Below, in pieces: positions 32,066-37,080 of a DNA stretch of 64,000 bases. The position numbers were made by a program, and so were the translations under genes. Below the pieces are notes generated by a model. The model searched no databases. It was not told the origin of the DNA and saw nothing but the letters and a program-made list of their open reading frames with translations. Numbering within the stretch: the first letter of the stretch is position 1; the number at the start of each line of letters is the position of its first letter. The DNA lies in assembly GCA_963775425.1 (NCBI GenBank), contig CAVZJB010000018.1, positions 192,001 through 256,000 of the forward strand, written 5' to 3'. Origin of the DNA: an uncultured delta proteobacterium. GTDB lineage: Bacteria; Myxococcota; UBA727; VGSZ01.

Positions 32066-35247
<3,182 letters not shown>

Positions 35248-35270
35248 CCGCCTGACCTCCGCAAGGCCGC

Positions 35271-36296
35271 TCAGATCCCGCACTCGAGGAAGGCGCGGGC
35301 GAAGGCGGCGCGGGCGCGATCGTCCATGTGCTCCCAGAGGTAGCGGCGCGAGGCGCACACCGCGGCGGCGTGGGCGTCGCGGGCCGCGAGGGCGGCTTTG
35401 ACGTCGAGGACGCCGACGGGGACGGCGCCGTCGTCGCAGCGCCAGGCGCGCGCGCCGAAGCCGTCGTCGAAGAGGGTGGCGGCGCGGCCGCCGGGGCACT
35501 CGAACGAGAGGAACGGATCGCCGGCGTTCACGTCGCGCGGGCGGTGGGTCTCGACGGGCACGGCGTCCTCGAGCACCGACTGCGGCACGAAGAAGCCGTC
35601 GTCGTCGGTGGCGCGGTGGATGGCGTGCGGGTCCTTGAGGTCCACGGGCTTGTCGGCCGTGTGGCAGCGGGCGCAGGCGTTGTTGCGCTTGTACTCCTCG
35701 ATGAGCACGCGCTTGTTCACGCGGGCGTCCTGCAGCGTGCGCGTGCGCCGGAGGCGTCCTGCGAGGAGGCCCGTGGCGACGCGCTGCGCGTCGTCGTCGC
35801 CGCTGCGCCAGCGAACCCCCGCGAGCGGCGCGGCCGTCGACGCGGCGGTGGGCACGAGCACGTGAAAGATCGCGCCGCCTGCAGCGAGCGTGGTGCCGCG
35901 CACGTCGATGACGGCGTCGCCGAAGGACTCCACGCGGTCGGCTTCGGTGCCCGGCGGGAAGCGCAGGCGCGGCCGGCCGTCGACGGTGCGCACGGTGACG
36001 CGGCCGCGTTCGGGCACCTTGAGCCAGACGGCGATGCGATCGCTCTCCGCGGCGTCGGTCGGCAAGCGCACCGGGGGCACCATGCGCGCGTAGCCCCGCC
36101 GCGACCAGTGGTCGGCGGGGTGGTCGATGCGGACGCGGGCGACGGCCCGCTGTGGGCGCGCGTCGGCGCGGTCGAGGAACATGAGCGCGACGGAGAAGCC
36201 GAGCACGGCGCCGGCGGCGGCGACGACGACGAGGGCGACCCCCGCCGCGCTCGTGTCTCTTCGGGTGGGGCTCTTGCCGTCGTCGTCGGGCATCAC
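35271..36296 (-). CDS. Membrane-anchored hypothetical protein with one c-type haem motif
   Basis: N-terminal TM; CARCH motif; last gene of the 42177-35271 run. Confidence 0.7.
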   Translation of the reverse strand: MMPDDDGKSPTRRDTSAAGVALVVVAAAGAVLGFSVALMFLDRADARPQRAVARVRIDHPADHWSRRGYARMVPPVRLPTDAAESDRIAVWLKVPERGRVTVRTVDGRPRLRFPPGTEADRVESFGDAVIDVRGTTLAAGGAIFHVLVPTAASTAAPLAGVRWRSGDDDAQRVATGLLAGRLRRTRTLQDARVNKRVLIEEYKRNNACARCHTADKPVDLKDPHAIHRATDDDGFFVPQSVLEDAVPVETHRPRDVNAGDPFLSFECPGGRAATLFDDGFGARAWRCDDGAVPVGVLDVKAALAARDAHAAAVCASRRYLWEHMDDRARAAFARAFLECGI

Positions 36297-36306
36297 TTCG
36301 TCGGGG

Positions 36307-37071
36307 TCAGGAGGGTACGTCGCGTCCCATCACGGTCTTTCGTCCGTCCTTGCGTGCGGTCTCGATGGCGAAGTGCGCGATGCGCCGAAGCTCGTTCGAG
36401 ATCACGGCAGGGACTTCGTCGGATGTACGCATGTCGGAGCGGGCGCGCACGTACTCCTTGAGCCTGGAGACCACCACGAGCACGTCGCCGGTCCCTTGCG
36501 GCCCCGGCCGGGGCACATCGCGCCCGAGGAGGGTCTTCCGGCTGTTGCGCCGGGCCTCTTCGATGGCCGCGTCGGCGAGCCGGCGCACGTGGACGCTGAA
36601 GGGCTGCAGCACCTGGTCCGAGGTGGACATGCCGTTGGACGCCGACTTGATGAAGTCCTTCAGGCGAGACACCACGACGAGCACCTCGCCGTCCCCGCTC
36701 GTCGACGCGGGGCTCGATGACGGCGCGCTCGATGGGGCGCTCGCCGGCACGCTCGATGGGGCGCTCGATGGGGCCGGCGCGCTCGAGGCCGGGCGCGGCG
36801 CGCTCGACGACGACGGCGACGGGCGCGGCGGCGACGACGGGCGCGGCGCGGCGGCCTCGGCGCGCGACGGGGCCACCTGTTCCACGGCCCACGCGTCCTT
36901 GTGGTTTTCGATCTCGTTGTGCACCGCCCAGCAGTCGGGCGAGCAGAACTGCGTGGGCGCGCGTACCTTGGTGCACGACGCCACGCTGCACAGGGAGTAC
37001 TTGCTGCCGAAGGGGATCTCCTTCTTGCAGTTGCTGCAGCGGCGCCAAAAGGTCTGCTCGGTGGACGTCAT
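36307..37071 (-). CDS. Bacterial histone: ZZ-like zinc finger + Ser/Pro linker + two tandem Bd0055-type histone folds
   Basis: CSNC/CSVASC/CSPDC/H/H ligands; repeats 'EVLVVVSRLKDFIK...MSTS...ARRNSRKTLLGRDV' and 'DVLVVVSRLKEYVR...MRTS...ARKDGRKTVMGRDV' carry the histone RKT-x3-RD signature. Confidence 0.88.
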   Translation of the reverse strand: MTSTEQTFWRRCSNCKKEIPFGSKYSLCSVASCTKVRAPTQFCSPDCWAVHNEIENHKDAWAVEQVAPSRAEAAAPRPSSPPRPSPSSSSAPRPASSAPAPSSAPSSVPASAPSSAPSSSPASTSGDGEVLVVVSRLKDFIKSASNGMSTSDQVLQPFSVHVRRLADAAIEEARRNSRKTLLGRDVPRPGPQGTGDVLVVVSRLKEYVRARSDMRTSDEVPAVISNELRRIAHFAIETARKDGRKTVMGRDVPS

Positions 37072-37080
37072 GGCCGGAAG

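Follow-up and report, generated by a model that had tools for sequence, protein, structure and literature searches.

Can a bacterial histone carry both halves of its DNA-binding dimer, together with a zinc finger, on a single chain? This question is raised by a gene in a 64,000-nucleotide stretch of DNA from an uncultured delta proteobacterium of the phylum Myxococcota (assembly GCA_963775425.1, contig CAVZJB010000018.1, positions 192,001 to 256,000). The whole stretch is called the window below, and positions are counted from its first nucleotide. The gene is located at 36307 to 37071 on the minus strand, and a preliminary description made from the sequence alone had read its product as a zinc-finger protein with two tandem histone folds. 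Bacterial histones have been recognised only recently. We found that the gene joins two features that were each published separately, the finger of the ZZ histones and a doublet of folds resembling HBb (Bd0055), the histone of Bdellovibrio bacteriovorus. In our view, the product is probably a single-chain, HBb-like pseudodimeric histone, which would bind and bend DNA and would tether one finger to each DNA-binding unit.

Two tandem histone folds of the HBb type

The coding sequence and its parts are as follows; the basis of each assignment is given in brackets.

36307..37071, minus strand: whole coding sequence, 254 amino acids (aa) plus stop, ATG start (open reading frame list and translation)
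36874..37050, minus strand: putative cross-brace zinc finger, residues 8-66 (invariant Cys/His ligands, AlphaFold2 [AF2] model, rows of the VIA structure search)
36691..36873, minus strand: disordered Ser/Pro/Ala linker, residues 67-127 (composition, low predicted local distance difference test score [pLDDT])
36511..36690, minus strand: histone fold 1, residues 128-187, with alpha1 at 134-144, alpha2 at 152-175 and a short turn at 183-185 (AF2, match to 9f2c)
36490..36510, minus strand: connector between the folds, residues 188-194, inside PRPGPQGTG 187-195 (translation)
36313..36489, minus strand: histone fold 2, residues 195-253, with alpha1 at 201-212, alpha2 at 219-242 and a turn at 249-251 (HBb matches)

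The translation confirmed a two-repeat finger protein in which every motif listed in the preliminary description is present. The CxxC, Cx4C and Cx3C motifs correspond to C12-x2-C15, C28-x4-C33 and C43-x3-C47, and the two histidines are H51 and H57. The linker, described as about 60 aa long with SP motifs, comprises 61 aa, of which 52 are Ser (22), Pro (16) or Ala (14), and contains three SP and eight PS dipeptides. The repeats start with E129-VLVVVSRLK and D196-VLVVVSRLK, end with RKTLLGRDV (178-186) and RKTVMGRDV (244-252), and are joined by PRPGPQGTG. Aligned to each other, they are identical at 33 of 60 positions (55%; E 5e-21), far beyond chance. In the alignment of full-length relatives the length of the connector differs, and the linker ranges from 21 to 69 aa among 48 finger-doublets. 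The third-position G+C content of the gene is 0.91, in line with 0.95 in its neighbours.

Both repeats are related to HBb. When the sequences of the Protein Data Bank (PDB) were searched with phmmer, fold 2 (residues 195-252) gave an ungapped match to chains 8cmp/8fvx with E 3e-8; their sequence is identical to that of 9ezz/9f0e, both titled HBb of Bdellovibrio bacteriovorus. Fold 1 (residues 131-185) matched 9f2c with E 6e-4. Furthermore, the NCBIfam model archaea_histone was matched by two stretches (E 1e-7), and the score for Pfam PF00808 (21.4 bits) was exactly its cut-off.

The AF2 model, built from 39 aligned full-length relatives, reached a pLDDT of 95-97 over both folds, with block means of 87-97 across residues 131-254. 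The linker was mostly below 50 (segments 75-83, 87-93, 95-100 and 105-125). Each modelled fold consists of alpha1, a long alpha2 and a three-residue helical turn where alpha3 would be, and thus has the truncated alpha3. With Foldseek, one fold was superposed on HBb chain 9f0e_A over 59 residues with a root-mean-square deviation (rmsd) of 0.9 Å, a template-modelling score (TMt) of 0.93 and 39% identity. The comparison with Bd0055 that the preliminary description had recommended therefore predicted histone folds, and in line with the phmmer match it bore out the assignment of the repeats to the short-alpha3 type of Bd0055.

The top Foldseek match to the whole model in the PDB was the Methanopyrus kandleri doublet HMk (1f1e; E 4e-5, 138 columns, TMt 0.60). 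Next in rank were H2A-H2B chimeras on a single chain, the histone domain of SOS, doublets of Melbournevirus and 1wwi. The alignments with single-chain doublets extended over 138 to 183 columns. Since the best structural matches are single-chain histone doublets, the two folds are predicted to pair within one chain as a pseudodimer. The AF2 model and the doublet matches, both of them predictions, agree here with the earlier proposal that the pseudodimer forms within one chain and that each such unit has a single finger. A two-copy complex prediction with residues 126-254 scored 0.23, compared to a mark of 0.42, and speaks neither for nor against self-association.

We then compared the DNA contacts of HBb, given as N22, R57, S9, T53, T8, S24, K10, K12, K52 and K16 (PMC11317129), with the two halves, using the ungapped phmmer alignment and the internal repeat alignment. 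In each half, eight of the ten contacts are unchanged or differ by a K/R exchange, namely S135, R136, K138, K142, S151, K179, T180 and R184 in fold 1 and S202, R203, K205, R209, S217, K245, T246 and R250 in fold 2. Among them, the basic alpha1 residues K10/K12/K16 of HBb are matched by R136/K138/K142 and R203/K205/R209. In the 39 relatives, seven of the eight retained contacts are 97-100% conserved or K/R-only in both halves; the equivalent of K16 (K142/R209) varies. The RKTxxxD motif is present as RKTLLGRD (178-185) and RKTVMGRD (244-251), with RKT at 178-180 and 244-246, and conservation reaches 97-100% at its R, K and T and at the closing R and D. Invariant residues include S135, R136, K138, S151, R178, K179, T180, R184 and D185 in fold 1, and V201, S202, K205, R215, R244, T246, R250 and D251 in fold 2. 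The doublet is strongly basic, with an isoelectric point (pI) of 10.5.

The halves are only mildly asymmetric, since few conserved position pairs differ between them. Among 59 aligned pairs, 13 are conserved to at least 80% and share their residue between the halves, and a single pair (G147 versus D213) is conserved to at least 80% with different residues. R215, E227 and R230 are invariant in fold 2 only; the fold 1 position equivalent to R215 is S, R or N among the relatives.

The N-terminal zinc finger

The six cysteines and two histidines of the finger are invariant in all 39 full-length relatives and in all 18 finger domains compared (those of the window and of the loci analysed). Beyond the ligands, R10, K16, W61, E64 and P68 are also invariant in the 18 domains. 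For the ZZ histone D0LYE7 of Haliangium ochraceum, the ligands are given as C20, C23, C51 and C53 (C4 site) and C36, C41, H59 and H65 (C2H2 site) (PMC11390915). Adding 8 to our ligand positions gives those of D0LYE7 in seven of eight cases; in the remaining one, the expected number is 55 and the printed one is 53. By analogy, we propose that C12, C15, C43 and C47 form Zn1 and that C28, C33, H51 and H57 form Zn2.

The fold of the finger was modelled with a pLDDT of 67-90 in the full AF2 model and of 73.9 when modelled alone. Its best Foldseek match was the ZZ domain of p62, with a weak E of 1.2. A VIA search of 48,161 chains, which is independent of Foldseek, also returned mostly ZZ-bearing chains in its top ten rows, all of them weak (Z 4.0-5.6); values of Z below 8 may reflect just a common arrangement. 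These rows included p300 (Z 5.1), p62 (5.0), BIG (4.3), HERC2 (4.2) and KCMF1 (4.0). RSC (5.6 and 4.9), Ada2 (4.7) and Nbr1 (4.3) were also found, in regions that we take to be their ZZ domains. Further down the list were the ZZ domain of CBP (3.6) and ZZZ3 (2.9).

Sequence profiles placed the finger outside the Pfam ZZ family. None of the 18 fingers matched PF00569 at E <= 1, nor did the whole protein match it. Six of the 18 matched zf-FCS and six FLZ in Pfam, and a profile of the 18 fingers found nothing significant among the PDB sequences, where a MYM-type finger at E 1.3 was the sole match. An identity as a MYND finger was hinted at by sub-threshold zf-MYND matches in 7 of the 18 (best E 4.4e-4) and was rejected, as no MYND finger was among the best 50 VIA rows. 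We conclude that it shares ancestry with the finger of the published ZZ histones; its fold is probably ZZ-like, and it lies outside Pfam ZZ.

Distribution and origin of the doublet

A word-indexed search identified 77 proteins (76 besides the query) at E <= 1e-3 among 8000 scored candidates, and when 1.84 billion representatives were searched with a profile, 1018 matched at E <= 1e-3, 498 at 1e-10 and 90 at 1e-30. For a census of 224 proteins, the best 150 of the 1018 profile matches were taken as representatives and combined with 74 other proteins. Classes were assigned with custom hidden Markov models for the finger and for each fold:

150 representatives: finger and two folds, 12; finger and one fold, 71; two folds without finger, 19; finger only, 22; one fold only, 26
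74 other proteins: finger and two folds, 39; finger and one fold, 31; two folds without finger, 4 (some of these being N-terminally cut fragments)

A false two-fold call (P0195, 115 aa) was excluded by a length filter. The cluster members, from Myxococcota and Nannocystaceae metagenome-assembled genomes, are labelled 'hypothetical protein'. In a sample of 301 genomes of Myxococcota, the phylum of the window, 54 genomes gave a match, 45 of them over the finger, and a match spanning both folds was detected in only six (G000, G001, G002, G004, G006 and G013); all these counts are floors. Five of the six genomes belong to the family of the window, and G013 belongs to another family of the same order. 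How often finger histones have two folds, a survey that the preliminary description had suggested, can thus be answered with 51 of the 224 fetched proteins, a share biased towards doublets because the query is itself one, and with 6 of the 301 genomes of the phylum.

In addition, six genomes of 1.6-3.4 Mb from another family of the order (G015, G019, G022, G027, G029 and G034) encode a finger histone with one fold (145-219 aa). A separate stand-alone histone-fold match is also present in three of these genomes, in open frames of 65-86 aa (G022, G029) and 176 aa (G034).

The halves of the finger-doublets were compared between proteins, leaving out those with a second fold match shorter than 50 aa (e.g., P0087 and P0089). 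In all 41 proteins of the main clade (P0002-P0042), fold 2 was nearer to fold 2 of the window than to its fold 1. Fold 1 was nearer to fold 1 of the window in 38 of the 41, with one tie and two reversed cases. In line with this, a tree built from 273 fold domains grouped 42 fold 2 domains of finger-doublets and four from fragments in a clade with a support of 0.934. Since the halves are orthologous across the main clade (approximately 40 proteins), the sequences fit one old duplication, after which the halves would have diverged. The divergence that the preliminary description had envisaged was indeed observed: within main-clade proteins the halves are 41-61% identical, and orthologous halves are more alike across species.

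Doublets outside the main clade showed no orthology of halves, and the halves of P0080, P0134 and P0159 are 64%, 84% and 78% identical, compared to 41-61% in the main clade. Very similar halves without orthology point to separate, more recent fusions in these proteins, and to more than one duplication in all. A tree of 148 finger domains required 13 Fitch changes between one-fold and two-fold proteins and is too poorly resolved for counting. Taken together, the sequence comparisons suggest that HBb-like folds were fused several times, with and without the finger.

Approximately 19 representative clusters are HBb-like doublets without a finger (P0134, P0159, P0182, P0161, P0166 and others), several of them with halves that are 64-84% identical.

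How does the protein compare to known systems? It shares with the ZZ histones, which are typified by D0LYE7 and were described by Schwab et al. in 2024 (PMC11390915), an N-terminal C4 and C2H2 finger, a linker and a short-alpha3, bacterial-dimer-like domain. Single-fold ZZ-finger histones were therefore already known, as the preliminary description had stated, and the single-fold relatives found in our word-indexed search are clearly homologous (E 1e-45 to 1e-18). The main text of that paper describes one C-terminal histone domain, whereas here two folds stand in tandem, and it uses 'doublet' and 'double histone' for viral and SOS proteins only. The DNA-binding unit also differs, since it would be one chain with one finger here and is a homodimer with two fingers in the single-fold proteins. 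Each half resembles HBb in its fold, truncated alpha3, RKT...RD motif and eight of ten contacts, at 39-40% identity and an rmsd of 0.9 Å. HBb itself, which belongs to the 'bacterial dimer' subfamily of the alpha3 histones, is a single fold of 60-odd residues that forms a homodimer and has neither finger nor linker.

An HBb-like histone doublet, structurally like the HBb dimer, was reported in 2025 for Bacteriovorax sp. ICPB 3264, which belongs to a different phylum (PMC11789641). By description, the single chain of this protein also holds two folds like that of HBb; the accessible text, in which the word 'zinc' does not occur, mentions no zinc finger for it. HMk (1f1e), the DUF1931 proteins (1wwi, 1r4v), the Marseilleviridae doublets and SOS likewise have two folds on one chain, arranged as an intramolecular pseudodimer. 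They differ from the protein of the window by a full-length alpha3 and show no detectable sequence relationship to it (12-19% identity in structural alignments). PMC12701072 distinguishes five alpha3 subfamilies and describes the DUF1931 proteins as bacterial pseudodimers without DNA-binding residues. PMC13088155, a 2026 review of double-histone-fold proteins, agrees on these residues, which are present in the protein of the window. In its accessible text, bacteria are represented by the 1WWI/1R4V type only, and 'zinc' is never used.

The novelty that the preliminary description had made dependent on ZZ-doublets being uncatalogued thus holds in part. Literature searches for the combination of finger and doublet found it in no main text, although it may be present without comment in supplementary lists of ZZ histones. 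The published Bacteriovorax doublet and the approximately 19 finger-less clusters make the novelty lower than had been assumed, and the gain is incremental because both ingredients were already published. Nevertheless, the conserved clade offers a natural experiment that separates finger stoichiometry from dimerisation, and in a doublet, unlike a homodimer, each DNA-contact site can be mutated independently. The protein would also add a member predicted to be DNA-competent to the bacterial double-histone-fold proteins, whose solved DUF1931 examples lack the DNA-binding residues, and repeated fusion of HBb-like folds would bear on how histone heterodimers arise.

Possible functions and genomic surroundings

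We suggest the following mechanism. The fused folds would pair within one chain and recreate the DNA-binding surface of the HBb homodimer, so that the protein could act as a monomer. Through the alpha1 N-termini and the L1/L2 loops, it would bind DNA via the minor groove without sequence specificity and then bend it. A ZZ-like cross-brace finger, predicted to hold two zinc ions, would be tethered to this unit by the disordered linker of approximately 60 aa. With the folds paired in one chain, there would be one finger per DNA-binding unit, compared to two in the dimer of a single-fold ZZ histone. The finger itself probably mediates interaction with a partner, either a protein or a nucleic acid. 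The analysis shows the architecture of the sequence, the HBb homology, the conserved contacts, the predicted fold and the spread of the family, and from there we infer DNA bending, zinc binding, a monomeric state and a role of the finger.

Several observations weigh against this proposal. The pseudodimer rests on one AF2 model, for which the predicted template-modelling score of the whole chain was only 0.52, a low value caused by the linker. Two HBb contacts differ: both halves have V in place of T8, and N22 corresponds to S149 of the first fold and R215 of the second. The fold assignment of the finger is weak (Foldseek E 1.2 or worse, VIA Z <=5.6, no Pfam ZZ match), and no neighbouring gene is conserved across families that would indicate a partner. 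Furthermore, the very weak expression of the B. bacteriovorus ZZ histone, a single-fold protein (PMC11390915), makes a global nucleoid role doubtful, and the genome also contains three HU/IHF-family genes.

The last two points lend themselves to another explanation, in which the protein is a specialised regulator of low abundance and not a general nucleoid protein: the finger would direct the histone unit to one particular partner or locus, with only generic DNA affinity supplied by the doublet. The expression of the B. bacteriovorus ZZ histone ranks in the top 43-70% of genes, corresponding to low abundance (PMC11390915), the genome has the three HU/IHF genes, and the five invariant non-ligand residues of the finger suggest a conserved binding surface. 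However, no partner is indicated, and the neighbours differ between families; we regard such a regulator as possible, if somewhat unlikely. Another explanation takes up the idea of the preliminary description that a reader and a histone are combined in one chain: the finger would recognise peptide N-termini, or tails resembling those of histones, in the manner of the eukaryotic ZZ domains of p62, HERC2, p300 and ZZZ3. The structural neighbours do include peptide-binding ZZ domains (p62, BIG, HERC2, KCMF1 and ZZZ3), but their Z values are all below 8 and the Pfam ZZ family was matched by none of the fingers. Moreover, the pocket residues of eukaryotic ZZ domains are not conserved in ZZ histones, and a second histone is present in just 50% of those proteomes in which a ZZ histone occurs (PMC11390915). 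The genome analysed here yielded no further gene for a histone fold above noise. The reader function thus found no support and is very unlikely. We give equally little credence to the idea that the histone folds serve as a scaffold without binding DNA, a role suggested for the pseudodimers of DUF1931 and for the histone domain of SOS. Such pseudodimers appear among the Foldseek matches, and the solved bacterial examples 1wwi and 1r4v lack DNA-binding residues (PMC12701072, PMC13088155). Against a scaffold, the DUF1931 profile PF09123 was not matched (E 0.19; 12.4 bits, cut-off 21.8), both halves contain the RKT...RD motif and eight of ten HBb contacts, most of them invariant, and the domain is strongly basic.

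A further explanation involves the neighbouring genes. The histone gene belongs to a minus-strand gene run from 42276 to 35271, on which a plus-strand gene converges:

40822-42276 and 39977-40819, minus strand: two Ser/Thr kinase genes, 3 to 5 genes upstream of the histone gene
39090-39980, minus strand: gene of the ferritin-like DUF455 family (E 6e-41), flanked by the kinases and the paralogue pair
38058-39071 and 37081-38061, minus strand: a pair of paralogues (337 and 326 aa) immediately upstream; a gap of 9 nt separates the pair from the histone gene
35271-36296, minus strand: 341-aa protein without family match, starting 10 nt past the histone gene
32479-35247, plus strand: SNF2-family helicase of 922 aa (SNF2-rel_dom E 4e-57, Helicase_C E 2e-24), converging on the histone run

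The two kinases, encoded on the same strand, could phosphorylate Ser/Thr residues of the linker and thereby switch DNA binding, which would be analogous, in a bacterium, to the modification of histone tails and would be compatible with the HBb-like pseudodimer proposed above. The linker offers 22 serines, and in three related loci a gene for a kinase-AAA_16-TPR protein (approximately 1160-1190 aa) is located directly upstream on the same strand (L021:165-3638, L022:1402-4965 and L024:2377-5913); L023 contains the TPR tail of such a gene. However, Ser/Pro/Ala low-complexity linkers are common in high-GC genomes. With at least 150 kinase-domain matches in the genome, five of them within the window, chance adjacency is not rare. 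Moreover, L021 to L024 come from one family and are not independent, no kinase match was found within approximately 8-9 kb in G013 (L034), which represents another family, and the single-fold loci L028, L030 and L031 have no kinase within approximately 7 kb. We therefore downgraded the kinase neighbourhood as a conserved link, as it is confined to the family of the window, and consider a phosphorylation switch improbable. Still less credible, in our estimate, is its boldest extension, an obligatorily asymmetric unit with one finger and non-equivalent DNA sites, which would be tuned by linker phosphorylation from the adjacent kinases and in which the finger would act as a reader or recruiter. 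If true, this would amount to a bacterial form of signalling through histone tails.

Beside the doublet genes of L010-L025 and L034, no counterpart was found of the paralogue pair, the 341-aa gene, the DUF455 gene or the SNF2 helicase gene. A scan of 35000-42600 detected no promoter-like sites and three terminator-like sites, compared to 1.5 expected and none of them on the strand of the gene, and was uninformative. A look-up of sequencing runs for 35271-39100 found none, and hence none with RNA. The paralogues of 337 and 326 aa had no match in Pfam or NCBIfam; the nearest named atlas clusters are ATP-grasp, with scores of 0.94-0.95, which is a weak lead. In the 341-aa protein, a hydrophobic stretch is located at the N-terminus, and CARCH is the one CxxCH motif.

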